Positions 13,001 through 55,216 of a stretch of DNA of 64,000 nucleotides are shown one piece after another. The DNA is taken from positions 1,272,389-1,336,388 of the forward strand of contig CM121343.1 of the NCBI GenBank assembly GCA_051530055.1. Direction: 5' to 3'. The notes beneath the pieces are model-generated. The model was not told the DNA's origin. It worked only from the letters and a program-made list of their open reading frames with translations, and searched no databases. How positions within the stretch are numbered: position 1 is the first letter of the stretch; the number at the start of each line of letters is the position of its first letter. This DNA is from Neoechinorhynchus agilis (taxonomy: Eukaryota; Animalia; Acanthocephala). A program made the position numbers and the translations under genes.

Positions 13001-15320
13001 TCTCGACAATTAACACACTCACCACCTCCCGCCGAATTCCAGCTTTTGTCCTTCCTCGACCGTCGCCATCACGCTGGCAGCATTGCCCCGTTGTGCTGCC
13101 AGCGAGATATTTTGTCGAAGGAATACGCCTGCTCTTGAGTCTCCGGTTGCCTCTCTCAATTTCTCCGAGAGATCCTGGAGCAGAGAGAGTGCCGAGCTGC
13201 CGAGCGCTGCATACGTCTCTACCCCAAAGGGGACAAAATAGTGAGCCCTCGATAACTGAATATATTTCCGTATTTTCCTCCTTTCTGCTGCACTGGCGGC
13301 ACCACCGGCGATTTCGAGGGAGTAGGAGATGTTGCTGGCTGCGAGGGTATCCACGCACGTGGCGTCCCAGAGAAGGTATTTGCCCTCCCGCCACGGGAAG
13401 ACCGAAATTCCATCGGGCCTACGGCCGTCTAGTCTACAGAGGTGGGCAGGTTCCAGGATGTTCGGGAAGTTCGCCGTTCTCAACGCCCGAGAAATTGCGT
13501 TATTGATTTCAGAATGGCGTGAGAACCTTCCTGCTGACCTTCTGCAGACGAGACCGTGTCGCCCGCGAGCATCAACCAAAGACCCACATCGACAGCGATG
13601 GGGCGTGCGTATCGGGAGACCAAGTCTTAATGATACTGCGATCCTTGTTACCTCGTCAGTAAGAAGAGTTCCCACTGATGCCAGAGGAACAGCCTCCAAC
13701 CACGCCCCAGATTCTCGTGTTGAAACTGCCAACAGTCTAGCTCGGACGACCCCATCGCGAGAACCGGAAAGTAGAGAGCTGTGAGCTCTCGCGACAAGAG
13801 GTCCGTCCCAGATCAACTGTCTGAGGCCATTCACGGGAACATGGTTAGCGCTTGTCTGCTGGCACCATTCCTCAACCGCCACCACGAAATCCCGGTCAAG
13901 ACAGAACTTTTCCTTCAAAATGTTCTTCGAGACCGGTAGGCTCCCCTCAAACGATCCAAGAAAGGCCGGCAAAGCAAGGTCAACTAGTGCCCGAATTCCC
14001 AATCCCCCAGATGACACAGGCAAAGAAGCTTGTCGCCACGCCTCATCTGAGAGCTGGACATTTAAAATACGCTCGAGACAAGCCCTCACCTTGCCGTCGA
14101 GTTTAGCCAATCCTTCCTTATGTTTGAAAAATGTTGCTGTGCGAACCTTGTACAATAATTTGGGGATGAAGAGCGCGCTCTTTATGAGAAACAAGGCTTC
14201 ATGAGCCGAGAGAGCGCACAACCTATCGCACAGCAACGAAAGTTTCGGTATTATATGGCCGATCTCATCTTCCACATTTGAATCGAAGACGCAACTGCCC
14301 AGGAGGCTGAGTTGTTCCCGAGTCACGAGTTTCAGGCCTGGAGCTACGGCCTCGAACCCAGTCATTAGTTCCTTGACTTTGGCGACGTCTCCAATATTCA
14401 GTATAAGGAGCTCACATTTTCCAGCATTAAGCTCAATGCCCATCTTCGAGGTCTCCCTAATCAGCGTCTCCAGATCGCGCAGTACAACGGAGGGATCACC
14501 TCCGAGCGTAGCGTCATCCAAGTACCGAGCGTTGAAGCTGGAATGGAGAGAATGCGCTATTGGATTTACTGTTAGGGTGAATGCGATTGGACCGAGGGGA
14601 TATCCTTGCTGCACTCCTATTTCGGACCAAATGAGGTGGTCTTCGAAACGCAAAGGAGTCGCCGTCTCGTAGGCATTGAGAAAATACTGGAAGGCTTGTG
14701 GGGCATGATCCCTAATTGCGCAGAACATGCTTTCTCTATTGAGAGAGTTAAAAGCGTTCCGAAAATCGCACTTAAGAATCACGCACGGCTCTGAGCTTCT
14801 CGTATCAAAGTTTCGGAGCGAGTGGACAATAGCTTCCGCCCCGCAGGATGTGCAGCAGCCCAGTTGGACTGGACGAAGTTGCTGTCCGGTTTTCTCTGTA
14901 ATACGTTTGCAGAGAATTTTTCCTGCGAGTCGACGTATCGTCGAAGATACGGCGATGGGACGGATTCCACCTTCTTTTTTTGTGAGGGCACACAATGAGG
15001 CTCCGAAAAATAGGTCCCTTGCAACGGGGTTCAGGTCCTCTCCAGTCAGGCGGTCGACTATTCGAGGAAGCGCACTTCCTAGAGAGAGCTGCTTCACCAG
15101 TTTAAAAGGACATCATGTCCTTTAGGTGCTGAGACCTTAGCCCGTCAAGCCCATGACCCGAACCATTTGCAAAAGATGAGATGGCCTTTTGTAACTCTGA
15201 AATTTGAGTAGGCGTCCTGTCTTGTATGGGAGGAGATGGAATTTCAAAACTTCCGCTACTACATGGGTGCTTCAATTTGAATTAAATTGCTGGCTGAATG
15301 GCGTAATTTAAAAAACCTTC
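13001..15320 (-). mobile_element. CRE-clade non-LTR retrotransposon (RT + zinc knuckle + restriction-like endonuclease), 5'-truncated
   Basis: 692-aa ORF 13019-15097: GGIRPIA, DFRNAFN, GVQQGYPLGP, YLDD, GGLGI, HRCRCG...HGLVC, RHSEIN, RPDG, WDATC, PFGVET. The upstream in-frame segment LKHP...AISSFANGSGHGLDGLR is separated by one stop. Confidence 0.9.
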
Positions 15321-21351: not shown

Positions 21352-21769
21352 CGGAAAAATGCGGCCAGTACGATTATATAAATACAAAATCGACCAAAAT
21401 ATAAGATTCGAAGACAGTTGGGAAAAATGCTCTCTTCGTCCGAGGAATACGACGGAAAATATATTGAAGTAACTGAGTTGAAGCCACCAGGCGCTTTATC
21501 TACTACCAGAAGCTACGAACGGGTACATATTTCGTGGATAAAACTAATGAAACAAAAGGAGGAAGACGATAAACATACCGATTGGTCCCACGATACTAAG
21601 AAATGCCGCGATTATGATTGGAAAATTTTTTCAACAGCGGTGCAAATAGAGAAATCGACCAATCATCTGATGGCAGCGAAGAATCTCCAGTGCAGAAGCA
21701 ATTGTGATTCGTTCATTCGACCATTGCGCCAGGACGGCAGCTAAGTTATCCAGAACGGTGGCGTAAACG
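21352..21769 (+). repeat. Local duplication of about 20757-21174
   Basis: Apparently identical, 595-bp offset. Absent from the copies at 44 kb and 52 kb. Confidence 0.9.
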
Positions 21770-23039
21770 ATACATTTTCGTGCTTGCTACCAGCTTTACA
21801 AGCAGGTTAAATCATAGCTTCGTGGTTCGTTTATTATTTTAGTTTTAAATATTTATGTTGGATTTTCATTTACTTCATTGTATCAAACTACCTTAAAGCA
21901 TAAATAATTATCTCAGTTAGAAGAAGATTTATCGACACCACGCAAATAAATGCAAAGATTATTAAGAACTATAATATTTCTCAATACCAAATCGATCAAG
22001 GAACGTCATTAGTTCAGTGCGTAATCAATATTTATAATGTGCTTTTTAATATTACAGAAGGAAAAATGCTGTCAATAAGACATGTCAATTGGTGTTTTTT
22101 TATCAAGAGATAGAATCTACAGCTTATTGATTTTTATTGATACTTTTATTCATTGGAAGGGACACTTTCTTTTTGATAGTTACTTTACTCTTGAATTTGA
22201 CATTCATCTTTTGCATCACTTGATCTCCTGGACTTTTTTCGGCAATCGATAAACCTCAAGCAATTTAATCTCAATAAGCTTATCCAATTCCTCCTTAGAT
22301 GTTGATTTGTTCATCGGTGTAATTATATTTCGATACTACATTTCTGCCCTGAGCTTGGGAGAATCTACATGGATATCGTCTTTTGGATTCATATTATGAC
22401 GTTCACAAGATAGCTTTTCATTGAATATTTTATAGCAATTCTCCCGATTGCTTTTGTATCTCCCATTAAGATGCAATGGTCCGAAATGCACACTGAGAGT
22501 ATTGATACTATTGATTTTTTTGGCACAATTAACATTTTAGCATATTGGTGAAACTATCATCGTCGTCTTTAGCGCTTCTTTTCCTACTATTTCGTTCATT
22601 ATTTAAGTTAGATTTCTAAGATTGAGGCCTTTGAACTATTTGTTAAAGAATCACTTCAGCGACCGACGTAGTGCTTGTTGGAATTGTTTGGGATTCCGCA
22701 GGTTCGAAATTAGCGTCCATATTTGCATTTCAGCTGTGGGGGCTGAATTCAAATCTTTTCCTTCGTTCAATGACGACAAAACGGTTTCAATAAAATTAAA
22801 TGCTTCAAAAGAGAAGAGATATTGGATAACGGTTTCCACGCAATTTTTTTCCGCGTTGCATCCTCTCAAAAATCTAATGAAATCCTAGCAAGAAATTTTT
22901 CTATTGAATCGAGGGTGTAAATTTCGGACAAACTTACATCATGAGATCTCAAATTGAATCTGTATTTTTGGGTATTTTTGAAAGATTTAAAAACTTACAA
23001 GCAATACCACAAAACAAAAACGTTATCCATCAAAAAGGA

Positions 23040-26000
23040 TAGTCAACGTCATCTCTCTCGTCACCATCCTCTCTCGCGTGAACGTCCTCCAAAATCGAAA
23101 ACAATTGGCGATACGATTAAATCTTAATCGCCGTGCTAACCTTCATGGCTGGTAAAAAGTCCCGTAACCCAGCCTCTAAGGAGATCACCTGTTCGTGCCA
23201 AGGGTGCTCGATAACAACCCTCATCGCCTCAACGCGCCCTTCTTTATCTGTGGGTTCTGCTGCGCCAAGCTGCTGATCAAATTGGCACCAGATCGAATAC
23301 CGTTTGGAATGCATTAGTCAATAAATAAGTTGTCGTCCGTTCAACACACGCCTTCTCCTGCCGTAAATTTGTGGATACCTCCCAAGGAACCCGCTGTTCC
23401 TTGTCAGAAATTGGACATACAACTGTTTTCCATCCCTCATCAGAAAATCGTCACACCTCAGGCATACTAGTCAAAACAGAAACACACCTCAGTGACTCAA
23501 ACAAAGACCGCAGCCATACCTAACTTCACTCACTTTCACTCTGTTAGAGACCCAACCCAAAAAAATTCGGTCGGCCTTGAACAATCCACTTGCACTCTAG
23601 ATGAACAGTCAACCACACCGTCACCCGACTTGACACCCATATCGCTACGACCACCAAAACTGACATTCTCGTCATTACGGAAACCTGGCTCTCCCAATTT
23701 AATAAGGACACTGCCATCATTCCCGTATTCTCCCCATTTCACCTAACTAGAGATGATCGTTCTGGAGGAGGCGTCTCTATTTACTTGAAGTCCTCCTTAC
23801 CATACACCATCTCCACCCCTCATTATTTTATATCAGAACATCTCGAATGGGTTCACCTTCAACTCTCTCTTTCTCTTCGTAACGGCAGCCGTGAAATGAC
23901 CGTCGCCGGTGTTTATCGCCCCTGCCTTTACTCCCGCAGCAACATCTGAATAAATCTACACCTTAATTAATGACAAACTATTGTTAAATTCTCAACATTT
24001 CCTGATTCTAGGAGACTTCAACCGTCTCCCTGCTCCACCGTCACTCTCTGATCTCTTACAACTAGCAAACTTCCCCTTGCGTGGTTCATCCAAACTAAAT
24101 AAAATCTTTACCAATATAGCCAAATATTCCGCTACCATTAAACTCCCACCCGTAGCGACCTCGGATCACTGCGCCATCCTCCTCAGACCAATTGTTCCTC
24201 CGAAGCGACAGTCCTCCGACCCTTTCGCGGTCTGGAATAAACGTGAGCATCACTCTCACTTCTTCTTCAACAAGGTAAGTGATGCTCTACCCGGAATCCG
24301 AAATTCTATATACAGCAACGACCCGTCTAAAGCCATGGCGGCATTGCACAATACTTTAGTCCATTGCATGTCTTTCCCTCGGAAAATGATTCGTATGTCG
24401 AATCGTGATCCACCATGGTTTTCACCTTTACTAAAATCACTGCAAGACAAGGTGAAAAAATCCTTTCGCTCCCGACATCCCGATTACCCAGAAATCCACA
24501 AGAGATTCACTGAGCACCTTCTTCACGCTCGCAAAACCTTCCTTTTTTCCAAATTACCGTCATCACCTAATCGTTCCTGGTGAAGCGAGATCAAAAATGC
24601 CATAGGCCTTCACAGATCTCAGCCTTTCGCCAATCTGCATAAATGTCAGCTCGAAAACACGCTCAACTCGATGAACACTACCATGTGCCCTCCCAAATCT
24701 TCCACTGACACAAGCGTCGTACGCCCCTGCGACGATCGCAACCATATGACCGGTGTTCCTCATTCACGCGTCTCCACTCTTGAGGTTTTCCTACTCCTCA
24801 AAAAACTACCACGTACATCATCCCCTAGCGCTCCGAATCCCAACTGGGCCATTCGCATTATCATTTCCTTTATCTTTGAGCCTCTAGCTCATATCATCAA
24901 TTCTAGCTTTGAAACGGGGATTTATCCAGACTGCCTGAAGACTGCTCGCGCCATTTCTATCCCTAAGGCGGGGAAGCCCGTTTCTCCGACTTCCTTTCGC
25001 ACTATCTCTCTACTCTCGCCGTTTTCTAAAAATTTTGAAAAATGTTTCAAAACTCGCATCCTCCCCATCTTTCTACAAAACATTTCGTTGAACCGATTCG
25101 GCTTCCGACCAGGATTCTGTTGTACTGACGCCCTCTTGTGCATTTACGATTCGATCCTGCGCAATCTTGACCAAGAACCGTCTTTCATTTGTCGCCTCAT
25201 CCAGGTGGATCTTGCCAAGGCCTTTGACTGTGTAGATTACGATCTTCTCGTTAAGGCCTGCGAGAAATTTGGCTTCTTACCCTGGCAAATAAGCTGGCTC
25301 ACTTCTTTCCTCGCAAACCGGTCGCAATATTTTCAATGCGGGAATACCTGCTTAACGACGCTTCCCATACATTGCGGTGTGCCACAAGGAGCTATACTAT
25401 CGCCCTTACTTTTCGATATCTTCCTCAACGACCTTACACCCCTCTCAACGTCCGCTAAATATTTCCTTTATGCGGACGACCTAACCATCATAACCCATGC
25501 CCCTCCATCACTCTCGCTCAACCTCACGTCCGCAGAGATTGAAAATCTTAAAGATTTTTGCACCACCCATCAACTCTCAATTAATTTCTCCAAATCTTAT
25601 GAACTTATTCCGTCGCATCGAAAACCTAGGACTGATATTCCACCGCCCCCTCTCGATATCCGACGCGTCACATCGCTTCGCATTCTGGGCCTAATCTTCC
25701 AACGCAACCTCAAATGGGACATTCACATTAATGGCGTCGTAGCAAAAGCCACTGCTAAATTGCATTTAATCAAGCGCTTGCGTTGCTTTCCTCTCTAAAT
25801 AAACTAGCCTGCAAAATTTGCTCCAAGGACCTCCCACCAATCGAAGAACATCTTTCCCAAATCTTCGATAAATACATGGCCTCCCTGCGTTCATTTCCAT
25901 CTAAATTTCTCCCGTTCATCTCGCCAGGGGAACCCGTCCGAAATACGCGATTTCCGAACAGATTCAATCCGCCTCTCCCTCGAACCACACTATATAAAAA

Positions 26001-26186
26001 ATCATTTTTTGCCATCGCACAATACACCCATGAGTCTACGGCCTCAATCGAAGGAAAGACTCAAGCGAATGCGACGACTTGCAACTCATTCCGAATTACA
26101 ATCTCAATCAAACAGCACGAATCCAAAGATACATGGTTCCTGTGCTTGTTTGTGTGTGGAATAATAAAACGTGTTATTATTATTAT
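23040..26186 (+). mobile_element. Near full-length CR1/L2-like LINE, family B, copy 1
   Basis: ATG at 23145 with a Cys motif. APE (DILVITETWL, RSGGGVSIY, GDFN, SDHCAI). In-frame stop at 24583. RT 24671-25798 (FGFRPG, DLAKAFD, GVPQGAILSPLLF, YADD). 3' AATAAAACGTG(TTA)n tail. Confidence 0.9.
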
Positions 26187-26826
26187 AAATAGGTTTATCG
26201 ATCAATAGATAGCGAGGTATTAGCACAAACGTTTTTCCCTCCACATATTTTGGAACATCACGTGTATGGTTTCCTGAATGAAAAGTAGCCAATCAGCATG
26301 CACTAATTACCTGTCCTTGTAAAAAACATCGAATTTTAATGCTAAAGTAGCTGTGAGGTATTATCAACAACTAAGTCGCTTGTTCCGAAACGAATTTTCA
26401 CGCCTCATTAGTTGTGTGTCATCAATTTTGCGGTTCAATCGACAGATAAAAATCGACCTCTTTGACACGTATCGGTATTTCAACCGTAGACTATCAATAT
26501 GTTAGTGATATCGTTTGTAACGTCTTGATAAGTGTCGAAAGCGACACAGTAAAGAATTCCCCAATCAGAATGTTGCAAGTCAGCGGGGTTTTAGTGATAT
26601 GAAATGTCATAAAATTTGCAGAAATTGCATTAGTTTTAATTTGGGATTATTTAAAAATCACCGGTCATTCGAAGCGCTGCGTCAGGTTTATAGAAACATT
26701 TTGCTGTTATGTAACTGAACTTTTTCGTACATAATCAGAAAACCTGATAAAGATAGTAAAGCCTCCAAAATCTCGACTAACCGCAGTTTCCTAATTTTAG
26801 ATAGTTTAGAGCTACAGATTTGAAGT

Positions 26827-27681
26827 ATGACGACAAGACAACCATTCGGGATAAGGGCACCACCAATCGAGGAAAGCGCACAATTCCTGCGGAACTACAT
26901 CTCTGGTCAAGCCAATAGTTTCAGTCATCCAGATCCACCAACGTTCGACATTATTCACCAAGGTCACCAAATATATAATCCCTTCGATGATGATTTTTAC
27001 CTCGATCGAGAAGTCGAAAAAATTTTGGAAAACGCAGAAGATAATACTATAAATAATTGTGCACCTCCGCCCGGCTTTGATGATTTCACTTTTATTTTCA
27101 ATGAGTCACCACCAAGCATTAATGAATTCAGTAACAATCATTCATCGATTGGAAATGCAGAATATTGCTTACCTCCACCGGGTTTTGAAAATTGCTCATT
27201 TACTTATTACGATAACGAGCCCGAAAACGAAGGATACTTCTCAACTCCACCAGGTTTCGAGAACGTGACTTTTGATTATTACGATTCACGATCAGGAATG
27301 GACGAATATGGCTCACCTCTTCTCTATTTTGAGAATCCGGCCTTTAATCACGAGGAGTCATGGAATGGAAACGAAGATTACTACGAATCGTTTCTCGATT
27401 TTCAGGAATCAACCGTTATATTTAATGAGTCGTCGTTGGAATTCGAAAAATACAGCCAGTTTTTCACTCTATTTAATGAAATCGAGTCAAAAGAACCTCA
27501 AGGTCGTTATGTACGCCCAGCGACGTGCAAGATAATAGATTTGCAAGACAGTAGCACGCAAACGGAACCGAATATCGTATCGAAACCTTGGAATGGATTG
27601 ACAACAATAAAGAATATTATTGATGCCGTTTACCAAGTGGCCGTTACGGCATTCAACTACTTCAGAAGGATATTTTTCTGA
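26827..27681 (+). CDS. Orphan 284-aa acidic, aromatic-rich protein with three P(P)PGF repeats, copy 1
   Basis: ATG-initiated uninterrupted ORF, AATAAA 22 nt after the stop. No recognisable domain. Confidence 0.55.
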   Translation: MTTRQPFGIRAPPIEESAQFLRNYISGQANSFSHPDPPTFDIIHQGHQIYNPFDDDFYLDREVEKILENAEDNTINNCAPPPGFDDFTFIFNESPPSINEFSNNHSSIGNAEYCLPPPGFENCSFTYYDNEPENEGYFSTPPGFENVTFDYYDSRSGMDEYGSPLLYFENPAFNHEESWNGNEDYYESFLDFQESTVIFNESSLEFEKYSQFFTLFNEIESKEPQGRYVRPATCKIIDLQDSSTQTEPNIVSKPWNGLTTIKNIIDAVYQVAVTAFNYFRRIFF

Positions 27682-27959
27682 CCATTCACAGTTTAGTATG
27701 TTAATAAAATGTGTTATTATTATAGTTTTGTAACTGTTCGTTAAATTAAAAACGTTTCATATTCGAACAAGGCCTTGGCTCGTTAGCATTTATACAATCA
27801 TGCAAATCCTTGGGAGCACTTGATTTTTATATCACACCATTTCTTTATTTGTGGTACCCAATCCTCCGATGTTCTAAATTTGAATGACCAAACTTCGTTG
27901 TCCTATGCGCGTAAACCTTTTCGATGAACATTCTGATATGACGCTTTCCCTTAACAGAA

Positions 27960-28345
27960 CGAGATTTTAAAATAAAATTTGTTTTAAATGAGGTGTAAGG
28001 ACTGTCAATATGCGAGGGCCACGGAACCAGAACATCCAATATTCAATTTCGAAGTGCCTGGCAAGTCTTGGAATAGACTATATGTTAACTTTACAGGTCC
28101 GCGTGATGGCGTTTCGAATTTGATAATGATTTCCTCATTAACGAAATGGGCTGAAGTGATATCAATGACAAGTATGACAGCCGAGGCAGTTATCAAGGAA
28201 ATGAGGGATGTATTCGGTCGATTAGGCATTCCCGAGAAGTTAGTATTAGCTCAAATCAATTTCGACGAATCCTGGATGGGAATAAACCCCCATCATCCAA
28301 GATCGAATGGACTTGCTGAACGCTTCGTACAAACGTTTTGGCGTG
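27960..28345 (+). mobile_element. Ty3/gypsy integrase fragment
   Basis: CKDC (HHCC half), WNRLYVNFTGP, TKWAEV, FGRLGIPEKLV, HHPRSNGLAERFVQTF, with an internal deletion. Confidence 0.8.
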
Positions 28346-28859
28346 CTTGTGTGTGTGTTTTTACTGGGTGGGTGCAGTTGTTCAATTCTCTACGTGTGTT
28401 GGCTGGCCATGCACAACATCATTAATATGTGCTCTTTCTTTTCAAATTTCTGCACGCACAAACGACTTTAACCCAAGTACTGTGGACTTTTTGTGGCCAG
28501 CAGCTGGGGCCGATGAAAGTTTTATGGATGGGAAGATCAATGCATCTTACTTGATGGTCCTCACTATTTCACTACGCGCCGCAACGTTGAGCTAATAGGC
28601 GATGGAGCGTTAAGAGTTATCCGTTCTCTGGAGGAATTTCGCTGCCTCATGGCGAACGATGATGAACTTGGATATAGGTTCCACATTGAACCAAGCTTCA
28701 GTTGCCATACGTCCGTTAAAAGAAAAGAGGAGGCTATTAAACGCATTGTCGGGTTTATATTTGACGAACGATTCAATAATAGCGTATGATTTGTGGCATG
28801 TAGTGATCGGCATAGTAGAGTCGTTAGCTGCAGGGCAACGTGACTCTACTTCATTTATG

Positions 28860-30290
28860 AGTGTGCACACGGACCTCGGTCGATTCCTCTGGGGTGATTG
28901 AATTAGTTTGCTGTAGGTCACATAGCTTAAAGCGGCTTAGCAGACACCGTGTCGCATACAAAGGTTTGAATAAACTATTTCCTGCCACTTGCCCTGCTGA
29001 TTGGGCGACTACGCGCTTAGACTTAGAAACTACTATGTCCATATTTGCCAATTACACAGCACAGAGACCTATGCGAGGCAAGAGCATGGCCAATGTGATT
29101 TTCCAGTTATGCAGTTTCAAATGTGCTAACGCTACGGTATGCGGTCTTCTGCTGGCCTCCTTATCTAGTGGGACGGTCAGACAATTTCTGGATTACTTGC
29201 TATCAAAAGGATGTTGCTGTCTATCCACAAAAGACTTAGTGACCATACTGAAGGAAGCTGGTGATGCTTGTCGACGAACGCATCGCGGGGGCATGAGCTG
29301 TCGGTACATGAGTCAGCGATATTTCCATATTGGTATATGGTATCTTCACGTGACATGAACATCTCTGACTGACCACAGGAGATTGTGAATCGGCAGACAG
29401 TGTCTGAGATCACTGACGAGGGTGACTTCCCTTTTGTGAAGTACATTGAGTTGTCTATTTCATATGATATAAAACACCTTTGTAAAAAGGTTCGAAAGTG
29501 CCCAATGGACTGGCCTACGTTTGTGGCCCAGAGAAACTGCATTGTTTCAGCTGGTAGTACCGGAGGTGTTAAAACGACAATCGACGGAAAAGACGTGTCA
29601 GCTGGCAAGAATATCTATTTTGAGAATACTCCAACAGACGAAATTCTTAGATGGATTGATGCTGAACCGGTGATAGTGGCAAACGGTTCTGAGAAATATG
29701 AACTCGGTAAAGCCAGGTCAATTTATGGAACGCAGCTTATGGATTATCTGATTATGACTTACGTTCTTATGCCTCTTGAAGTATATCTTGATACAATAGC
29801 TGGTGTGCAGCACGTTAATTCCCCACCTTTGTCCTTGATTCGGCACAATTTGCGTTTATCTGCTTCCAGCGTTTCGACTGTTACTGGCCTCATGTTAGAT
29901 TACTCGGATTTCAACATACAGCACACTTTAAGCATTCAGTCGTGTATGTATTCGATTCTATTGCCAACGCTGCATTGGCCTGCAATTGGAACAGCGAATA
30001 CACTTGAAGGCCGCCAAATGGTGTGCGAAGGCCATTCTCAACTGCTGGTGCACTGTCCCTGGCAATGGCTGCAAGGTCCGGGTACAGCAGGGCCTCGCAC
30101 AGCTTTCATAAACAGTATGTTAAACAAAGCTTACTTGGACGCAGGTATAGCTGGCACTGCTGCTCTGATACGGAGCGTCCCACCTGTTACGGCGCGGTTC
30201 CATCAAGATGATGGCGTTTGGATCTCTTCCACTGATGAGCGTTTCCTGGTTATGCTGTACCACCTTATGATCGCTGCCGGATTTAAGTTT
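28860..30290 (+). other. Endogenous viral element: totivirus-like (dsRNA virus) RdRp, pseudogenised
   Basis: Ordered motifs NISD*PQEIVNR (DWxxExxxR), WPTFVAQR...AGS, KYELGKARSIYGT, MLDYSDFNIQHT (motif A), GPRTAFINSMLNKAY (B), FHQDDGVW (degenerate C). ORFs 28861-29358 and 29385-30368. Confidence 0.85.
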
Positions 30291-30688
30291 GTTCCTCCCT
30301 ACGCCATTGCGCTCGCAGACTCCTACAATTCAAGGATCCGATTCGTACTCCTCTTCTATCTGAAATAGCTGGGCCAAATGGCTCACGGCTGTCAGCGCCA
30401 CCTGAACAGTCCGTACCCACCACGGTGATGAGCTTCAACTGACGGTTTCGCTGCCTCCGGCGACAGTTTCGCTCATTTCGACGCTCAAGTCGTCGGCGAG
30501 AGCTACGACGCCCTCGCCTTTTCCCGTTGCACTAGTGGATTTTGTTACTCCTGTTCGCTGCCGCATCACCAAGTGGAGCGGCACACCGAGCCCGCGTTGA
30601 CAGGCTACTATCAGTAGCTGTTTGGCCGCCGGAGCTGCTTCCTTTACGTGACCGACAAGAATCAGTAACATCAGGTCCGATCATCGTG

Positions 30689-30749
30689 GTGCTCTGAATG
30701 TTAAAGTGAAGAAATTAATTTAAGCGCGGGTAAACGGTGGACGTAACTA
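30689..30749 (+). rRNA. Isolated 28S rRNA fragment (region just upstream of the R2 target site)
   Basis: gtgctctgaatgttaaagtgaagaaattaatttaagcgcgggtaaacggtggacgtaacta versus the recalled conserved 28S GTGCTCTGAATGTCAAAGTGAAGAAATTCAATGAAGCGCGGGTAAACGGCGGGAGTAACTA. Not a functional gene. Confidence 0.8.
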
Positions 30750-33700
30750 AGCGAAAACCAAAGGACAATTACTTCTGCGAAAACCGAAATTTCGAGGAAC
30801 TGTTCCTTGAGGAGATTTTCTGACTGTCAGGTTTAATTCCTGTATCTCGCTATAGGTACCTGCAAGATATAACTGATAAGGGCCTGAGCTCTGCTCATTG
30901 TGTTGTTTGCCCGAGCACTGCCCTATTAACCTGCCACTCACTCGCTCCCGCAAAGAGGTTTTATTTTGGGCCAAAAGACGCAGTTTTGGGGTTTTCAATG
31001 CAGCCGGTTTCATTTCCGCCCACCCCGAGCGATTCGTTAAGGGAAATCTCAAGACGCAGTTTTTACTCGACGTCTGCCGTATTTTTGGTGACGTAATTTT
31101 AAAAATTTTACTAAAATTGTATAATTTTTGAAATTCAATCAATCTTCATTTCTCGACAATTAACACACTCACCACCTCCCGCCGAATTCCAGCTTTTCTC
31201 CTTCCTCGACCGTCGCCATCACGCTGGCAGCATTGCCCCGTTGTACTGCTAGCGAGATATTTTGTCGAAGGAATACGCCTGCTCTTGAGTCTCCGGTTGC
31301 CTCTCTCAATTTCTTCGAGAGATCCTGGAGCAGAGAGAGTGCCGAACTGCCGAGCGCTCCATACGTCTCTACCCCAAAGGGGACAAAATAGTGAGCCCTC
31401 GATAAGTGAAGATATTTCCGTATTTTCCTCCCTTCCGCTGCACTGGCGGCACCACCGGCGATTTCGAGGGAGTAGGGGATGTTGCTGGCTGCGAGGGTAT
31501 CCACACACGTGGCGTCCCAGAGAAGGCATTTGCGCTCCCGCCACGGGAAGACCGATATTCCACCGGGCCTACGGCCGTCTAGTCTACAGAGGTGGGCGGG
31601 TTCCAGGATGTTCGGGAAGTTCGCCGTTCTCAACGCCCGAGAAATTGCGTTATTGATTTCAGAATGGCGTGAGAACCTTCCTGCTGACCTTCTGCAGACG
31701 AGACCGTGTCGTCCGAAAGCATCAACCAAAGACCCACATCGACAGCGATGGGGCGTGCATATCGGGAAACCAAGTCTTAAGGATACTGCGATCTTCGTTA
31801 CCTCGTCAGTAAGAAGAGTTCCCACTGATGCCAGAGGAACAGCCTCCAACCACGCCCCAGATTCTCGTGTTGAAACTGCCAACAGTCTAGCTCTTAATTT
31901 TACGCAATTTCAAAATTTTATTTAAATTTCATTTAATTTTACTTAATTTTTCTTAATTTCTCTCCTTTTTATTATCTTTTTTTATCCAATTCAGAGTTTA
32001 TGAGTTCGTCAATAACTTGCGGAATTCCTGAGCTTTTACAGATAGAAATTTTTTATCATATCACTCCGGAAAACCCTTGGAATGTCCTATATGTTCGTTT
32101 CTAGCTGTAGGCAAAACGAAACATGGAGTCTTCCTCGAGCATATTGATAAAAATCATTCGCGTGGGCCGGTAACATGGGTCTGTCAGATTTGTAATAAAT
32201 TTCGCCACGCCGCTCCAGGAAGCGTAGGCACGCATTCTCGTAAATGCAGGGTTCAGAATGTTTTATTGCATCGGAAAATCTTAGAAGAAATTGAACCAAT
32301 CATCCATAAGAAAGCTGTCCTCGATGGGGCCGTCGTCAGATACACGGGAAACGGTTCGCCAGCCTATGCCCTTGTTGTGGCGTTCAAATTTCCGGGCTGG
32401 GCCCTAACTACCTGCTTAAGTATGTGATGGGAACGTACGATGGAAGCTTTACAAGGATACTCATGGCCAATACCAGACCTTCGAACCCTGTCAAGTTCGC
32501 GAGGGGAGTGAAACAAAAGGATCCCCTCTCCCCCTTTCTTTTTGCGCTGTGCGTGGATGAGGCCCTAAAAGAGGTTCGTAGTCTTGAACTCGGATGCTCA
32601 CTCAAAAACGACGCACGTCTATCACATATGATATACACTGACGATGTGCTTCTACTAGCGGAAGATAGCACACGCCTGCAAAGGATGATCGATTCCCTAC
32701 AAGTCAAACTGAAAGAGATAAAGTTGCAATTAAGCGCGGAAAAGTGCATGGTGTACCGACAGACTTTCAACTGCGGGAAAATGAAGGTGCATACGGACTC
32801 CGAAATGAAAGTGGACGGTGTGATACTTCGGACAATCATTGAAGGAGACCCGGTCAAATACCTAAGGGGAACCCCCTGGAAGGAAACGACGCTTGAAGAG
32901 GCACTGGTCATTTTGGACTCCCTCTTTTCTACGGTAAGTACTGCGCAGCTGACCCGCACCCAAGCAGCTCATATTCTCAATGATTACGCTCTGCCATCTC
33001 TTTTGGCTAGACTCGAAGCCTCATGGGACATATCGCCGACGAACCTTATGAAAATCGATGAGCATTGGAAGGTAAGGTTGAAGCGTCTCCTGGAGCTTCC
33101 TAGATGCGTGTGCGACGGAGCATTTTATCTACCGTTGTCGAAAGGTGGACTTGGATTTCGGTCCGTGCTTCACGAGGTCCAGACAAGGAGGTTGGGCGCC
33201 CTCAGATATGTGCTAAAAAGATACGGAGACGCCGTTGATCTTAAAAAGGAGGTCAAGCAATTGACTACACACTTCTGCAAAATGGAGACCTGCGATCTGA
33301 GTAACCTCTCTCCTAGCGGAGTGTTTCAAGAACATTGTGTCAAACTATGGAAGGGGGCTACAACGCAGGCCCAGGATTCCAATGTTTCACTGATGGCTAC
33401 TGCGACCGCTACCTCGTTTCATTCCGATACAGGCAGGATCGCCACGGCCGGTACGTGGAACAGGTGAAGCTGCGGCTTCAGCTGTTGGAGGTGGGCTCAG
33501 TGCTAAGCCGCATGGACCACCGGAGGTCAAAGGGCAGTCGGCACTGCACCGCCCCTGTGGAATCCTGTGCCCACGTCCTCAATGGGTGCGATCATGCGTC
33601 CTCTATAATAACGAGGAGGCACGACAAGGTGCAGGCACGCCTAGTGTGGTCCGTCACAAAGGGACCATCCGCTAGATTTGAACAGTTAACCGAGAATCGT

Positions 33701-34212
33701 TTTTACGATGACGCCGGCAATCTCAACAAATCGGATCCAATCTTACGAAGCAAAGCCTCCGGTGACGTGTTTATTGCGGATGTCGCCGTTTACTACGAAA
33801 CAGGTCCAGAGCGGGCCGAAGAGGTGATGCGAAGCAAGGAGAGAAAATATGCGCCGATCATTCCGGTGGTAAAAAGGCACCTAAACATCCCAACGCATAA
33901 GGTGTTCACCATCGGTCTTGCAGTGGGCTCACGAGGCACTTTCAGCCAACCCTTGCTTCGCCGCCTGAAGCTCCTGCCAGCGGGGAAACGCACGGCGCTC
34001 AATATGGCGCAAACGGCCGCCGAACAATAGATGGTAGTCTTCCACACATTCATGGGAAGACGCTGGAGGATGCGTAACGAGAGTTAAAAAGAAACAAGAG
34101 GAAATTGACACAGTTCAGCTAAATTGAATTAATAATAACGTAAAGCAAAGTAAAGACAGCAAAATGGTAATGTGTGAGTGTGTAATTCCTTTAATAATAA
34201 TAAATGAAGCCC
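30750..34212 (+). mobile_element. R2-like retrotransposon, internally deleted and frameshifted, with a nested CRE fragment
   Basis: N-terminal CCHH and CCHC fingers (32077-32250). RT (RGVKQKDPLSP, IYTDD, GGLG). CCHC (HCTAPVESCAHVLNGC), RRHDKV, (P)D...ADV...KERKY and VGSRG RLE motifs. 28S flanks on both sides. Confidence 0.85.
31151..31893 (-). mobile_element. 5'-truncated CRE copy (RLE domain only) nested in the R2 5' region
   Basis: Closely similar to 13001-13743. ORF 31169-31882. Confidence 0.9.
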
Positions 34213-43597: not shown

Positions 43598-46182
43598 ATT
43601 TAAAAGCTAGATTAGAGCGATTTTGAAATTCCCGAAAAATTGTAAATCTTCTTCTTGGTGAACAATCAAACCTGTAATATTCCTCGTTTTCTAATACTTC
43701 CACACGGAAACGATGTATTCACTTAGTCAACATGAATCTCTCATAACCGATCGAGCCGAGAATTGTGCGATCATCAGATTTTTTAGCGGACTTGAAATAG
43801 TGATTGGAATTGAAAGACCGATTAAATAATGCAACACCAAGCAGTGTTCTCTTCAAAAATTAGGTAAGCATCAATTGGGAATATATTCACGATCTAATAT
43901 TAAATTCAAAGATAAATCTCGAAATGTATTTTGACTATATCATTCGTGTGTGTGATAAAAGTCGTACTATTACAATTAAAAAGCCGAATTCATAGATTGT
44001 GCAAGAAAACCAATTCCAAATACAACAGGTAAGTTCAAAATATGCTCTAAAAAATTAATCAAATCTTTTTAGGCGACGACCAAGAAGACATTGCAAATGA
44101 AAACTCATTTGAAGATTTGCATAGCGATTCCAGTAATGACTGGTCAGGAATGGATAATTATGATGACCAAACACATCGAACAATACATCAAGTTATATCG
44201 ATTACGTTGTTATCGCTGAAACTTCAACCGCTATCGACTGCAGTTCAAAAGACTTTGGCAACTATTCCGATGGAACTATAGAAGGAAGAATGCGGTCAGT
44301 ACGAGTATATAAAAACAAAATCGACCAAAATATAAGATTCGAAGACAGTTGGGAAAAATGCTCTCTTCGTCCGAGGAATACGACGGAAAATATATTGAAG
44401 TAACTGAGTTGAAGCCACCAGACGCTTTATCTACTCCCAGAAGCTACGAACGGGTACATATTTCGTGGATAAGACTAATGAAACAAAAGGAGGAAGACGA
44501 TAAACATACCGATTGGTCCCACGATACTAAGAAATGCCGCGATTATGATTGGAAAATTTTTTCAACAGCGGTGCAAATAGAGAAATCGACCAATCATCTG
44601 ATGGCAGCGAAGAATCTCCAGTGCAGAAGCAATTGTGATTCGTTCATTCGACCATTGCGCCAGGACGGCAGCTAAGTTATCCAGAACGGTGGCGTAAACG
44701 TTTATAAACTCTCGGGCATTATATTATGGTGGCGATGCTTGCGTCAAAGCCAGTAAAAATATATAGCGTTGAAAGATGATAAGGACAAACAAATAAATAT
44801 TTGCAAGTCGTACCTCGACACAAATATTTGGAATGATAGTGCATTTTATTGGCAACTCAGAAATTCCAAGAATAACTCAAATAATGCCAAAAACGAAAAA
44901 AAGTTTTGAATGATAGATTTTCGTGCTTCCTACCAGCTTTACAAGCAGGTTAAATCATAGCTTCGTGGTTCGTTTATTATTTTAGTTTTAAATATTTATG
45001 TTGGATTTTCATTTACTTCATTGTATCAAACTACCTTAAAGCATAAATAATTATCTCAGTTAGAAGAAGATTTATCGACACCACGCAAATAAATGCAAAG
45101 ATTATTAAGAACTATAATATTTCTCAATACCAAATCGATCAAGGAACGTCATTAGTTCAGTGCGTAATCAATATTTATAATGTGCTTTTTAATATTACAG
45201 AAGGAAAAATGCTGTCAATAAGACATGTCAATTGCTGTTTTTTTATCAAGAGATAGAATCTACAGCTTATTGATTTTTATTGATACTTTTATTCATTGGA
45301 AGGGACACTTTCTTTTTGATAGTTACTTTACTCTTGAATTTGACATTCATCTTTTGCATCACTTGATCTCCTGGACTTTTTTCGACAATCGATAAACCTC
45401 AAGCAATTTAATCTCAATAAGCTTATCCAATTCCTCCTTAGATGTTGATTTGTTCATCGGTGTAATTATATTTCGATACTACATTTCTGCCCTGAGCTTG
45501 GGAGAATCTACATGGATATCGTCTTTTGGATTCATATTATGACGTTCACAAGATAGCTTTTCATTGAATATTTTGTAGCAATTCTCCCGATTGCTTTTGT
45601 ATCTCCCATTAAGATGCAATGGTACGAAATGCACACTGAGAGTATTGATACTATTGATTTTTTTGGCACAATTAACATTTTAGCATATTGGTGAAACTAT
45701 CATCGTCGTCTTTAGCGCTTCTTTTCCTATTATTTCGTTCATAATTTAAGTTAGAATTATAAGATTGAGGCCTTTGAACTATTTGTTAAAGAATCACTTC
45801 AGCGACCGACGTAGTGCTTGTTGGAATTGTTTGGGATTCCGCAGGTTCAAAATTAGCGTCCATATTTGCATTTCAGCTGTGGGGGCTGAATTCAAATCTT
45901 TTCCTTCGTTCAATGACGACAAAACGGTTTCAATAAAATTAAATGCTTCAAAAGAGAAGAGATATTGGATAACGGTTTCCACGCAATTTTTGTCCGCGTT
46001 GCATCCTCTCAAAAATCTAATGAAATCCTAGCAAGAAATTTTTCTATTGAATCGAGGGTGTAAATTTCGGACAAACTTACATCATGAGATCTCAAATTGA
46101 ATCTGTATTTTTGGGTATTTTTGAAAGATTTAAAAACTTACAAGCAATACCACAAAACAAAAACGTTATCCATCAAAAAGGA

Positions 46183-49100
46183 TAGTCAACGTCATCTCTC
46201 TCGTCACCATCCTCTCTCGCGTGAACGTCCTCCAAAATCGAAAACAATTGGCGATACGATTAAATCTTAATCGCCGTGCTAACCTTCATGGCTGGTAAAA
46301 AGTCCCGTAACCCAGCCTCTAAGGAGATCACCTGTTCGTGCCAAGGGTGCTCGATAACAACCCTCATCGCCTCAACGCGCCCTTCTTTATCTGTGGGTTC
46401 TGCTGCGCCAAGCTGCTGATCAAATTGGCACCAGATCGAATACCGTTTGGAATGCATTAGTCAATAAATAAGTTGTCGTCCGTTCAACACACGCCTTCTC
46501 CTGCCGTAAATTTGTGGATACCTCCCAAGGAACCCGCTGTTCCTTGTCAGAAATTAGACATACAACTGTTTTCCATCCCTCATCAGAAAATCGTCACACC
46601 TCAGACATACTGGTCACCACAGAAACCCGGCTCAGTGACTCAAACAAAGACCGCAGCCATACCTAACTTCACTCACTTTCACTCTGTTAGAGACCCAACC
46701 CAAAAAAATTCGGTCGGCCTTGAACAATCCACTTGCACTCTAGATGAACAGTCAACCACACCGTCACCCGACTTGACACCCATATCGCTACGACCACCAA
46801 AACTGACATTCTCGTCATTACGGAAACCTGGCTCTCCCAATTTAATAAGGACACTGCCATCATTCCCGTATTCTCCCCATTTCACCTAACTAGAGATGAT
46901 CGTTCTGGAGGAGGCGTCTCTATTTACTTGAAGTCCTCCTTACCATACACCATCTCCACCCCTCATTATTTTATATCAGAACATCTCGAATGGGTTCACC
47001 TTCAACTCTCTCTTTCTCTTCGTAACGGCAGCCGTGAAATGACCGTCGCCGGTGTTTATCGCCCCTGCCTTTACTCCCGCAGCAACATCTGAATAAATCT
47101 ACACCTTAATTAATGACAAACTATTGTTAAATTCTCAACATTTCCTGATTCTAGGAGACTTCAACCGTCTCCCTGCTCCACCGTCACTCTCTGATCTCTT
47201 ACAACTAGCAAACTTCCCCTCGCGTGGTTCATCCAAACTAAATAAAATCTTTACCAATATAGCCAAATATTCCGCTACCATTAAACTCCCACCCGTAGCG
47301 ACCTCGGATCACTGCGCCATCCTCCTCAGACCAATTGTTCCTCCGAAGCGACAGTCCTCCGACCCTTTCGCGGTCTGGAATAAACGTGAGCATCACTCTC
47401 ACTTCTTCTTCAACAAGGTAAGTGATGCTCTACCCGGAATCCGAAATTCTATATACAGCAACGACCCGTCTAAAGCCATGGCGGCATTGCACAATACTTT
47501 AGTCCATTGCATGTCTTTCCCTCGGAAAATGATTCGTATGTCGAATCGTGATCCACCATGGTTTTCACCTTTACTAAAATCACTGCAAGACAAGGTGAAA
47601 AAATCCTTTCGCTCCCGACATCCCGATTACCCAGAAATCCACAAGAGATTCACTGAGCACCTTCTTCACGCTCGCAAAACCTTCCTTTTTTCCAAATTAC
47701 CGTCATCACCTAATCGTTCCTGGTGAAGCGAGATCAAAAATGCCATAGGCCTTCACAGATCTCAGCCTTTCGCCAATCTGCATAAATGTCAGCTCGAAAA
47801 CACGCTCAACTCGATGAACACTACCATGTGCCCTCCCAAATCTTCCACTGACACAAGCGTCGTACGCCCCTGCGACGATCGCAACCATATGACCGGTGTT
47901 CCTCATTCACGCGTCTCCACTCTTGAGGTTTTCCTACTCCTCAAAAAACTACCACGTACATCATCCCCTAGCGCTCCGAATCCCAACTGGGCCATTCGCA
48001 TTATCATTTCCTTGATCTTTGAGCCTCTAGCTCATATCATCAATTCTAGCTTTGAAACGGGGATTTATCCAGACTGCCTGAAGACTGCTCGCGCCATTTC
48101 TATCCCTAAGGCGGGGAAGCCCGTTTCTCCGACTTCCTTTCGCACTATCTCTCTACTCTCGCCGTTTTCTAAAAATTTTGAAAAATGTTTCAAAACTCGC
48201 ATCCTCCCCATCTTTCTACAAAACATTTCGTTGAACCGATTCGGCTTCCGACCAGGATTCTGTTGTACTGACGCCCTCTTGTGCATTTACGATTCGATCC
48301 TGCGCAATCTTGACCAAGAACCGTCTTTCGTTTGTCGCCTCATCCAGGTGGATCTTGCCAAGGCCTTTGACTGTGTAGATCACGATCTTCTCGTTAAGGC
48401 CTGCGAGAAATTTGGCTTCTTACCCTGGCAAATAAGCTGGCTCACTTCTTTCCTCGCAAACCGGTCGCAATATTTTCAATGCGGGAATACCTGCTTAACG
48501 ACGCTTCCCATACATTGCGGTGTGCCACAAGGAGCTATACTATCGCCCTTACTTTTCGATATCTTCCTCAACGACCTTACACCCCTCTCAACGTCCGCTA
48601 AATATTTCCTTTATGCGGACGACCTAACCATCATAACCCATGCCCCTCCATCACTCTCGCTCAACCTCACGTCCGCAGAGATTGAAAATCTTAAAGATTT
48701 TTGCACCACCCATCAACTCTCAATTAATTTCTCCAAATCTTATGAACTTATTCCGTCGCATCGAAAACCTAGGACTGATATTCCACCGCCCCCTCTCGAT
48801 ATCCGACGCGTCACATCGCTTCGCATTCTGGGCCTAATCTTCCAACGCAACCTCAAATGGGACATTCACATTAATGGCGTCGTAGCAAAAGCCACTGCTA
48901 AATTGCATTTAATCAAGCGCTTGCGTTGCTTTCCTCTCTAAATAAACTAGCCTGCAAAATTTGCTCCAAGGACCTCCCACCAATCGAAGAACATCTTTCC
49001 CAAATCTTCGATAAATACATGGCCTCCCTGCGTTCATTTCCATCTAAATTTCTCCCGTTCATCTCGCCAGGGGAACCCGTCCGAAATACGCGATTTCCGA

Positions 49101-49329
49101 ACAGATTCAATCCGCCTCTCCCTCGAACCACACTATATAAAAAATCATTTTTTGCCATCGCACAATACACCCATGAGTCTACGGCCTCAATCGAAGGAAA
49201 GACTCAAGCGAATGCGACGACTTGCAACTCATTCCGAATTACAATCTCAATCAAACAGCACGAATCCAAAGATACATGGTTCCTGTGCTTGTTTGTGTGT
49301 GGAATAATAAAACGTGTTATTATTATTAT
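46183..49329 (+). mobile_element. LINE family B, copy 2
   Basis: Almost identical to 23040-26186, with the same stop and frameshifts. Confidence 0.9.
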
Positions 49330-49969
49330 AAATAGGTTTATCGATCAATAGATAGCGAGGTATTAGCACAAACGTTTTTCCCTCCACATATTTCGGAACA
49401 TCACGTGTATGGTTTCCTGAATGAAAAGTAGCCAATCAGCATGCACTAATTACCTGTCCTTGTAAAAAACATCGAATTTTAATGCTAAAGTAGCTGTGAG
49501 GTATTATCAACAACTAAGTCGCTTGTTCCGAAACGAATTTTCACGCCTCATTAGTTGTGTGTCATCAATTTTGCGGTTCAATCGACAGATAAAAATCGAC
49601 CTCTTTGACACGTATCGGTATTTCAACCGTAGACTATCAATATGTTAGTGATATCGTTTGTAACGTCTTGATAAGTGTCGAAAGCGACACAGTAAAGAAT
49701 TCCCCAATCAGAATGTTGCAAGTCAGCGGGGTTTTAGTGATATGAAATGTCATAAAATTTGCAGAAATTGCATTAGTTTTAATTTGGGATTATTTAAAAA
49801 TCACCGGTCATTCGAAGCGCTGCGTCAGGTTTATAGAAACATTTTGCTGTTATGTAACTGAACTTTTTCGTACATAATCAGAAAACCTGATAAAGATAGT
49901 AAAGCCTCCAAAATCTCGACTAACCGCAGTTTCCTAATTTTAGATAGTTTAGAGCTACAGATTTGAAGT

Positions 49970-50821
49970 ATGACGACAAGACAACCATTCGGGATAAGGG
50001 CACCACCAATCGAGGAAAGCGCACAATTCCTGCGGAACTACATCTCTGGTCAAGCCAATAGTTTCAGTCATCCAGATCCACCAACGTTCGACATTATTCA
50101 CCAAGGTCACCAAATATATAATCCCTTCAATGATTTTTACCTCGATCGAGAAGTCGAAAAAATTTTGGAAAACGCAGAAGATAATACTATAAATAATTGT
50201 GCACCTCCGCCCGGCTTTGATGATTTCACTTTTATTTTCAATGAGTCACCACCAAGCATTAATGAATTCAGTAACAATCATTCATCGATTGGAAATGCAG
50301 AATATTGCTTACCTCCACCGGGTTTTGAAAATTGCTCATTTACTTATTACGATAACGAGCCCGAAAACGAAGGATACTTCTCAACTCCACCAGTTTTCGA
50401 GAACGTGACTTTTGATTATTACGATTCACGATCAGGAATGGACGAATATGGCTCATCTCTTCTCTATTTTGAGAATCCGGCCTTTAATCACGAGGAGTCA
50501 TGGAATGAAAACGAAGATTACTACGAATCGTTTCTCGATTTTCAGGAATCAACCGTTATATTTAATGAGTCGTCGTTGGAATTCGAAAAATACAGCCAGT
50601 TTTTCACTCTATTTAATGAAATCGAGTCAAAAGAACCTCAAGGTCGTTATGTACGCCCAGCGACGTGCAAGATAATAGATTTGCAAGACAGTAGCACGCA
50701 AACGGAACCGAATATCGTATCGAAACCTTGGAATGGATTGACAACAATAAAGAATATTATTGATGCCGTTTACCAAGTGGCCGTTACGGCATTCAACTAC
50801 TTCAGAAGGATATTTTTCTGA
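49970..50821 (+). CDS. Orphan PPPGF protein, copy 2 (283 aa)
   Basis: In-frame 3-nt deletion and a few substitutions relative to copy 1, including third repeat PPGF to PPVF. Confidence 0.5.
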   Translation: MTTRQPFGIRAPPIEESAQFLRNYISGQANSFSHPDPPTFDIIHQGHQIYNPFNDFYLDREVEKILENAEDNTINNCAPPPGFDDFTFIFNESPPSINEFSNNHSSIGNAEYCLPPPGFENCSFTYYDNEPENEGYFSTPPVFENVTFDYYDSRSGMDEYGSSLLYFENPAFNHEESWNENEDYYESFLDFQESTVIFNESSLEFEKYSQFFTLFNEIESKEPQGRYVRPATCKIIDLQDSSTQTEPNIVSKPWNGLTTIKNIIDAVYQVAVTAFNYFRRIFF

Positions 50822-51134
50822 CCGTTCAAAGTTAAGCATCGATTATTAATAAAATGTGTTATTATTATATAGTTTTGTAATTGTTCGTGAAATTAAAAAT
50901 GTTCCATATTCGAACAAGGCCTTGGCTCATTAGCACTTATACAATCATACAAATCCTTGGGAGCACTTGGTTTTTATATCACACCATTTCTTTATTTGTG
51001 GTACCCAATCCTCAATGTTCTAAATTTGAAATAGTGAGAGCGTTGGTAAGCGTGTACGCGAATTTAGAGGTCAGGCCAGAGATCGACGAAGCACTCCAGA
51101 ATCTCTAAACTCCTGATATTTCTAGGCCAAACTA

Positions 51135-54100: not shown

Positions 54101-55124
54101 ATTACGATAACGAGCCCGAAAACGAAGGATACTTCTCAACTCCACCAGGTTTCGAGAACGTGACTTTTGATGATTACGATTCTCGATCAGGAATGGACGA
54201 ATATGGCTCACCTGTTCTCTATTTTGAGAATCCGGCCTTTAATCACGAGGAGTCATGGAATGGAAACGAAGATTACTACGAGTCGTTTCTCGATTTTCAG
54301 AAATCAACCGTTATATTTAATGAGTCGTCGTTGGAATTCGAAAAATACAGCGAGTTTTTCACTTTATTTAGTGAAATCGAGTCAAAAGAACCTCAAGGTC
54401 CTTATGTACGCCCAGCGACGTGCAAGATAATAGATTTGCAAGACAGTAGCACGCAAACGGAGCCGAATATCGTATCGAAACCTTAGAATGGATTGACAAC
54501 AATAAATAATATTATTTATGCCGTTTACCAAGTAGCCGTTACAGCATTCAACTACTCCAGAATGATATTTTTCTGACCATTCAAAGTTAAGTATCGATTA
54601 TTAATAAAATGTGTTATTATTATATATTTTTGTAATTGTTCGTGAAATTAAAAATGTTTCATATTCGAACAAGGCCTTGGCTCATTAGCACTTATACAAT
54701 CATACAAATCCTTGGGAGCACTTGGTTTTTATATCACACCATTTCTTTATTTGTGGTACCCAATCCTCCAATGTTCTAAATTTGAATTAGTGAGAGCGTT
54801 GGTAAGTGTGTACGCGAATTTAGAGGTCAGGCCAGAGATCGACGAAGCACTCCAGAATCTCTAAACCCCTTTTATTTCTAGACCAAACTTCGTTGTCCTA
54901 TGCGCGTAAACCTTTTCGATGAACATTCTGATATGACGCTTTCCCTTAACAGAATGAGATTTTAAAATAAAATTTGTTTTAAATGAGGTGTAAGGACTAT
55001 TCAATATTCAATTTCGAAGTGCCTGGCAAGTCTTGGAATAGACTATAGGTTAACTTTACAGGTCCGCGTGATGGCGTTTCGAATTTGATAATGATTTCCT
55101 CATTAACGAAATGGGCTGAAGTGA
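51135..55124. repeat. Duplicated block, copy 3 (about 20027-22730 joined to about 26515-28160)
   Basis: Deletion junction near 53405 removes the family B LINE and its flanks. Ends inside the integrase fragment (…gctgaagtgat). Confidence 0.88.
53722..54486 (+). pseudogene. Orphan PPPGF protein, copy 3, premature stop
   Basis: TGG to TAG after VSKP removes the last 30 aa. Confidence 0.55.
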
Positions 55125-55216
55125 TGTTCCCAAGCTACTAAAAATGCCGTAATTATGATTGGAGAATTTTTCAACATCGATGTTAATAGAAAAATCGAGC
55201 GGTCATTTTTCGCTTA

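Follow-up and report, generated by a model that had tools for sequence, protein, structure and literature searches.

Toti-like double-stranded RNA (dsRNA) viruses have left many traces in arthropod chromosomes, and the accessible text of PMC10636211 reports 5686 toti-like endogenous viral elements (EVEs) in 593 of 1188 arthropod genomes. The described counterpart in Acanthocephala is a set of 18 rhabdovirus-like sequences from Pomphorhynchus laevis (PMC12548735). The available portions of that paper state that no other virus of P. laevis had been described, call its assembly the sole one of the phylum and state that almost nothing is known about viruses of Acanthocephala; a toti-like acanthocephalan element does not appear in those portions of its main text, where 'toti' occurs once, for Perkinsus. 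The main text of the P. laevis genome paper, to the extent available, contains neither 'virus' nor 'viral' (PMC7310846).

The locus described here was found in a 64-kb window, the whole stretch of 64,000 nucleotides that was analysed. It is very probably a decayed endogenous piece of a toti-like dsRNA virus polymerase, likely copied by a host retrotransposon reverse transcriptase after infection of the germline of an acanthocephalan, likely Neoechinorhynchus agilis. Like the arthropod elements, it is part of a gene of a toti-like dsRNA virus that lies in a host chromosome; it differs from them in its very likely acanthocephalan host, and in being heavily broken with no sign of domestication. 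With the rhabdovirus-like EVEs in the available text of PMC12548735 it shares the character of an RNA-virus fossil in Acanthocephala, those being derived, unlike the element, from negative-strand viruses. Because toti-like EVEs are known by the thousands in arthropods, the element itself is of a common kind, a dead EVE like many others; what gives it value is the link it makes between a clade of dsRNA viruses and Acanthocephala. The novelty is apparently a toti-like EVE in a new host phylum, together with an acanthocephalan virus lineage that is apparently undescribed. The features to which the text refers are the following.

26827..27681, plus strand: multi-copy host open reading frame (ORF) of 284 aa in an N. 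agilis protein cluster, not part of the viral element
27988..28338, plus strand: integrase-core fragment of an LTR retrotransposon (rve_3, E 2.4e-4, below the curated cutoff)
28337..28475, plus strand: 139-bp stretch common to the second copy, no homology found
28476..30296, plus strand: decayed toti-like (RdRP_4) polymerase fragment, residues ~5-630 of ~1030 aa
29373..30368, plus strand: 331-codon ORF, a chance-open composite of ~190 viral, 51 off-frame, 66 viral and 23 non-viral codons
30297..30690, minus strand: high-copy repeat fragment that begins exactly at the end of viral homology

The viral identity of the element was first proposed in a sequence-only reading, which named the RdRP_4 profile (PF02123) as a check. 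Indeed, ORF 29373-30368 matched RdRP_4 (E 2.4e-14, 53.6 bits, cutoff 22), the sole viral match among the 24 window ORFs scanned with Pfam. The series of polymerase motifs listed in that reading was recovered in full, in the stated order and on the plus strand, in the translation of 27900-30800, the motifs being SD*PQEIVNR, WPTFVAQRNCIVSAGS, GKARSIYG, DYSDFNIQH, TAFINSMLNKAY and HQDD. The reported loss of a tryptophan to TGA corresponds to the in-frame stop at 29370-29372, inside SD*PQEIVNR, and the reported degeneracy of HxDD holds as well, since motif C reads HQDD and its GDD is lost. GDD was kept in motif C by all eight relatives checked. The GxRTxF motif is present as described, but it straddles a frameshift where motif B is some five codons short. 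A PDB sequence search gave a best match of only E 0.35.

Frameshift-aware local alignment to the relative P0001 (1029 aa) paired 28476-30296 with residues 5-630, and 232 of the 598 aligned residues were identical (38.8%), at the cost of seven frameshifts and one stop. The frameshifts lie near 28571, 28751, 28884, 29301, 29945, 30004 and 30098. Alignments to P0002 and P0003 started at 28595 (39.0% identity) and 28900 (41.4%), respectively, and placed the 3′ breaks within a few codons of those given by P0001. The start at 28860 proposed earlier is therefore too far to the right, as homology to P0001 reaches left to 28476. For the 5′ extension (28337-28899) the score summed over four relatives was 180, whereas the best of 147 random stretches of the window scored 147 (0/147). 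Taken singly, the score of P0002 was reached by 0/147 random stretches, that of P0001 by 1/147 and that of P0273 by 7/147; P0003 gave no 5′-extension signal, its score being reached by 66 of the 147. At the other end, viral homology stops at 30296, before the EFLR motif (present in 7/8 relatives checked), and ~400 further residues, the 3′ 40% of the gene, are absent.

The count of about 330 open codons in the sequence-only reading was accurate for the ORF as such (331 codons), and the viral frame occupies only ~190 + 66 of them. Between these two parts run ~51 off-frame codons (~29945-30098), set off by three frameshifts whose net shift is zero, and the final 23 codons are non-viral. The accompanying impression of a largely intact frame was not sustained in view of the seven frameshifts, the stop, the broken motifs B and C and the missing 3′ part. 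The element is thus a dead polymerase piece of 1.8 kb, which cannot encode a working polymerase because of its lesions and the loss of catalytic motifs, and a present role as protein is excluded.

Relatives of the element were sought in large protein collections. Of 1.84 billion representatives, 229 matched at E<=1e-3 (best 8.8e-61); 10 relatives were found among longer proteins, and 25 with P0001 as the query. All named viral matches, among the matches listed, were toti-like and the phylogeny agreed, in keeping with the identity proposed at the outset. The nearest relatives, P0001, P0002 and P0003, are full-length polymerases (1027-1040 aa), each located on a Logan contig of 6.3-6.4 kb. They belong to the same clade as the element, with which they share 39-41% identity, and differ from it in having intact frames with all motifs; they are therefore likely to represent living viruses. 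A genomic context search returned distant loci only, two in viral_contigs (26-29%) and one in metagenome_contigs (31%).

Trees were midpoint-rooted, with gappy rows included and without ICTV exemplars, so that no genus or family is assigned, and the element was entered with X at each break. A clade of the element, P0001-P0003 and P0008 received a support of 100 (32 rows, IQ-TREE quick), an 11-row clade including the element 99 (50 rows, FastTree) and a 9-row clade including the element 98 (22 rows, with the two shortest members and many outside rows left out). Among the 10 other members of the 11-row clade six are named, and 6/6 are from P. laevis (KAI0985060.1, KAI0981942.1, KAI0986997.1, KAI0980754.1, KAI0981717.1 and GJ496_002573); the other four are P0001-P0003 and P0208. 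These trees show the element to be included in a clade in which every named member comes from an acanthocephalan.

The P. laevis pieces resemble the element in belonging to the same RdRP_4 clade, in being fragmentary and in lying on genomic contigs (78-198 kb). They differ from it in sequence, with only 30-41% identity, and are unannotated hypothetical proteins. This degree of identity suggests different viruses of one lineage and, presumably, separate integrations. The pieces are apparently non-monophyletic in the trees. P. laevis belongs to Palaeacanthocephala and N. agilis to Eoacanthocephala, which are different classes. In the gene model of P0008 (P. laevis GJ496_002573) a CCHC zinc knuckle (residues 80-93) is combined with a polymerase piece belonging to the clade, hinting that an LTR retrotransposon may be the neighbor there too.

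The limits of the clade were also considered. For ten of 138 proteins the score against the clade was at least 95% of that against sequences outside it, and three of these ten were ties (P0174, P0287 and P0288), P0287 and P0288 being 24-28% identical. P0174, from Caligus, was rejected as a clade member, since it fell outside the clade in the 50-row and 22-row trees. Toti-like polymerase pieces (P0174, P0211 and P0153) occur, unannotated or barely annotated, among the proteins of Caligus rogercresseyi and Sergentomyia squamirostris, and P0153 likewise lay outside the element's clade in the 50-row tree. Ilomantsi totivirus 1, Hattula totivirus 2, Hanko totivirus 8, Murri virus and Mute swan feces associated toti-like virus 2 have RdRP_4, a length of ~1000 aa and the same motif set. 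The named Finnish totiviruses are 27-33% identical to the element, and the named invertebrate-associated totiviruses, which we take to belong to the order Ghabrivirales, were all outside the element's clade in the trees containing them.

The clade pattern predicted an acanthocephalan host, and the cluster of a neighboring ORF agreed. Five window ORFs were looked up in a protein collection and one, 26827..27681, was found there. It sits on an NCBI contig of 7,816,151 bp, and its cluster comprises 13 members that are 92-97% identical, 11/11 of the named ones being from N. agilis. No Pfam match and no usable ESM Atlas match was obtained for this ORF. On these comparisons the host is very likely an acanthocephalan and likely N. 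agilis.

The suggestion that the virus behind the element was undescribed is consistent with these results, as the nearest named relatives are the P. laevis pieces and the clade was not found in print. A toti-like or dsRNA virus lineage of Acanthocephala was not found in the full-text literature, a scope outside which most subscription journals lie. In the supplements of PMC12548735, as far as available, five of the clade accessions, their prefix and the species name were not found; the rhabdovirus-like records of that paper were not found there either, so its tables may list these proteins. The clade is likely an undescribed virus lineage of these parasites. The balance tips slightly towards an acanthocephalan toti-like lineage that would have infected the germline repeatedly, in two classes using different fish hosts, and that would still be alive, as the three full-length polymerases suggest. 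The earlier fossils came from one gut-derived assembly and could not be assigned to the worm with certainty. With a related fossil now on a megabase contig of a second worm, which belongs to a different class, the worms themselves become the likely hosts, and the three orphan polymerases P0001-P0003 thereby gain a host hypothesis. Were the lineage real, it would comprise the first dsRNA viruses to be attributed to Acanthocephala; viruses of parasites are relevant to parasite biology and to fish disease.

To follow the element into its flanks, five runs holding all or part of the stretch were compared as contigs. X1 is a DNA run and perhaps the source of the window itself; X2-X5 belong to a second study, are RNA by guess only, and their contigs indicate presence, not transcription. 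On the 5′ side, the integrase-core fragment, presumably Gypsy-type, lies on the same strand as the viral block and abuts it directly, the boundaries overlapping by 2 bases (28337-28338). Its frame stays open over the junction (27988-28425), ~28 codons into the 139-bp stretch, which may be chance (1 in 3 for the frame). Part of the fragment recurs at 54881-55125, and an X3 contig of the integrase element departs from the window sequence at 28338. The 139-bp stretch is possibly viral sequence preceding the polymerase ORF; sought as an upstream capsid ORF by tblastx against the three distant loci (L001-L003), it gave a best E of 0.71. A slippery-site-like heptamer at 28444-28450 was rejected, being out of register with the polymerase frame.

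On the 3′ side, X1 depth rises from 91 to ~19,000 across 30296-30340, and several contigs carry other sequence before 30297-30300. The minus strand of 30297-30690 resembles, we presume, the start of a LINE endonuclease frame; a Pfam search of this repeat was without a match. Among the 24 window ORFs scanned, RVT_1 was found in seven, a LINE-type endonuclease family in two and an integrase core in one. No target-site duplication longer than 5 nt was detected at the junctions, no A/T run of at least 7 or poly(A) at the element, and no LTR pair around the integrase/virus junction. The kind of reverse transcriptase cannot be read from the locus because a target-site duplication (best 5 nt) and an A/T run of this length are both lacking; LTR and LINE candidates are both present in the window, and neither is singled out by the junctions.

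X1 further contained variant contigs, ~1-4% different, which cover 28337-29828 and continue beyond both limits in other sequence, for at least 255 letters on the 5′ side. They skip 28420-28485 and 29055-29101, have no gap across the frameshift at ~29301 and no listed change at the stop at 29370, and their gap clusters across the 5′ frameshifts total 18 and 9 nt. Compared in this way, the variant contigs indicate a second copy with the same lesions and different flanks; short and unlinked as they are, they presumably form one such copy. The lesions common to both copies would therefore reflect one integration, then decay, then duplication. As the flanks differ and the lesions are shared, the junctions seen today probably differ from those left by the integration itself.

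The course of events that we favor starts from the fact that dsRNA viruses have no DNA stage, so that a host reverse transcriptase must have copied the RNA in the germline. Germ cells of the worm would have been infected by a virus of the element's clade, and its plus-strand RNA would have been reverse-transcribed by an LTR or LINE reverse transcriptase and inserted once. The inserted polymerase piece would then have decayed neutrally, and later duplication and rearrangement would have given two copies ~1-4% apart, with shared lesions and different flanks.

An alternative account of the capture takes the integrase/virus junction at 28337-28338 as primary: an LTR reverse transcriptase would have jumped, by template switch, from the RNA of its own element to viral RNA, and the hybrid would have integrated. 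The direct, same-strand abutment with its 2-base overlap fits this account, as does the zinc-knuckle join in P0008 of P. laevis. Same-strand association with LTR elements is also the pattern in Aedes, where 543 of 614 LTRs share the polarity of their EVE in the available text of 10.1101/127498. However, the second copy shares the lesions and departs at 28337 into at least 255 other letters, so that by parsimony it has the older 5′ continuation and the integrase junction came later. A random later break of the second copy at 28337, next to the 28338 at which the integrase contig departs, is unlikely, and on the simplest reading the integrase junction is secondary. Neither an LTR pair nor a target-site duplication over 5 nt accompanies the junction, and in a region this rich in transposons any neighbor is likely to be one. 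A primary template switch is thus doubtful. In the favored course the second copy probably keeps the older 5′ continuation and the Gypsy junction of the window is later; the lesson of this element is that an adjoining LTR fragment need not mark the original capture.

Some properties of the second copy are recorded here. In the polymerase-homologous part of 28542-29612 the two copies differ in length by 18, 9, 3 and, less certainly, 45 bases. All are multiples of three though both copies are frameshifted, which may be chance (~1 in 27 to 1 in 81); two length differences in the upstream 139 bp are not multiples of three. The 5′ piece of the second copy (28485-28811) had a depth of 33 and 37, against 2-4, in two guessed-RNA runs, where it was the deepest part of the element, and of 6 and 4 in the other two; contig depth of this kind (4-37 vs 2-4) cannot show expression.

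Most likely the element is inert today, and if it acts at all it would be as RNA, a candidate piRNA precursor, and not as protein. The antiviral piRNA source raised in the sequence-only reading was also considered in a form under selection, in which case the element would lie in a piRNA cluster and antisense piRNAs would target a circulating relative. This is improbable. Targeting by piRNA base pairing needs closer sequence than ~40% protein identity; the closest intact relatives are only ~40% identical to the element in protein, too far for base-pair targeting, and the lesions suggest age. The idea draws on the transposon-dense setting and on two precedents: in the available text of PMC12256650 PIWI, piRNAs in clusters and a ping-pong signature are described for acanthocephalans, N. 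agilis among them, and EVE-derived antisense piRNAs are documented in mosquitoes in that of 10.1101/127498. If the lineage is real, its fossils, the element among them, may feed the worm piRNA pathway, a prospect to be rated just as low.

That a contaminant or a chimeric assembly joined viral or foreign sequence to worm DNA in silico is very improbable. One X1 contig covering 28261-28518 bridges the 5′ junction to the integrase fragment with 0 differences. A second, covering 29792-30326 with 0 differences, extends 30 letters beyond the 3′ junction, just under the bridging rule of 31, a shortfall that speaks for the chimera reading. The gut origin of worm samples from fish is a further caveat, voiced for P. 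laevis in the accessible text of PMC12548735. A live dsRNA virus, however, would have neither DNA nor eight inactivating lesions. X1 depth on the element was 74-148, of the same order as the 85 of the unique flanks. Pieces of the element recur in the second study, where contigs of X2, X3, X4 and X5 were identical to parts of it, short, and bridged no junction by 31 letters. Window-type contigs were absent from X1 over ~28520-28880 and 29056-29548, and such holes prove nothing. The element thus lies in host chromosomal DNA, in a transposon-dense setting, with its 5′ junction bridged. Together, the RdRP_4 match, the lesions, this junction and the N. agilis-type neighboring ORF bear out the endogenous toti-like dsRNA virus origin first proposed from sequence.

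Domestication into a working host gene derived from the polymerase, as with the planthopper ToEVE that was co-opted, is hardly credible: the 331-codon frame has an ATG at 29505, NCBI gene models have been built on such pieces in P. laevis and co-option is known (PMC10636211, available text), but the frame is a composite over three frameshifts and runs into a repeat at its end, neither motif B nor motif C is whole, EFLR is lacking and the second copy stops at 29828.

The surrounding window holds further repeats. A 6.1-kb unit is repeated at 99.1% identity at 21766-27884, 44909-51030 and 53406-55125. This tandemly repeated unit carries a LINE and the acidic 284-aa ORF with PPPGF repeats, whose multi-copy family consists of N. 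agilis hypothetical proteins; the LINE reverse transcriptase at 24584-25795 had best matches that were 27-40% identical.

No Rfam match at the gathering threshold was obtained in the 64-kb window. Below this threshold, a 28S rRNA fragment was recognized at 30689-30735 (LSU_rRNA_eukarya, E 4.8e-7), at the start of the plus-strand stretch 30689-34030. It is followed on its 3′ side by a non-coding stretch, zinc-finger codons at 32032-32427, a reverse transcriptase at 32310-33467 and a likely restriction-like endonuclease frame. We take 30689-34030 to be an R2-type element that carries a piece of its rDNA target and lies outside the rDNA array. This R2-like element is interrupted at 31151-31893, on the minus strand, by the 3′ end of a different non-LTR element, which shares 96.6% identity with 13001-13743 and has very high X1 depth.
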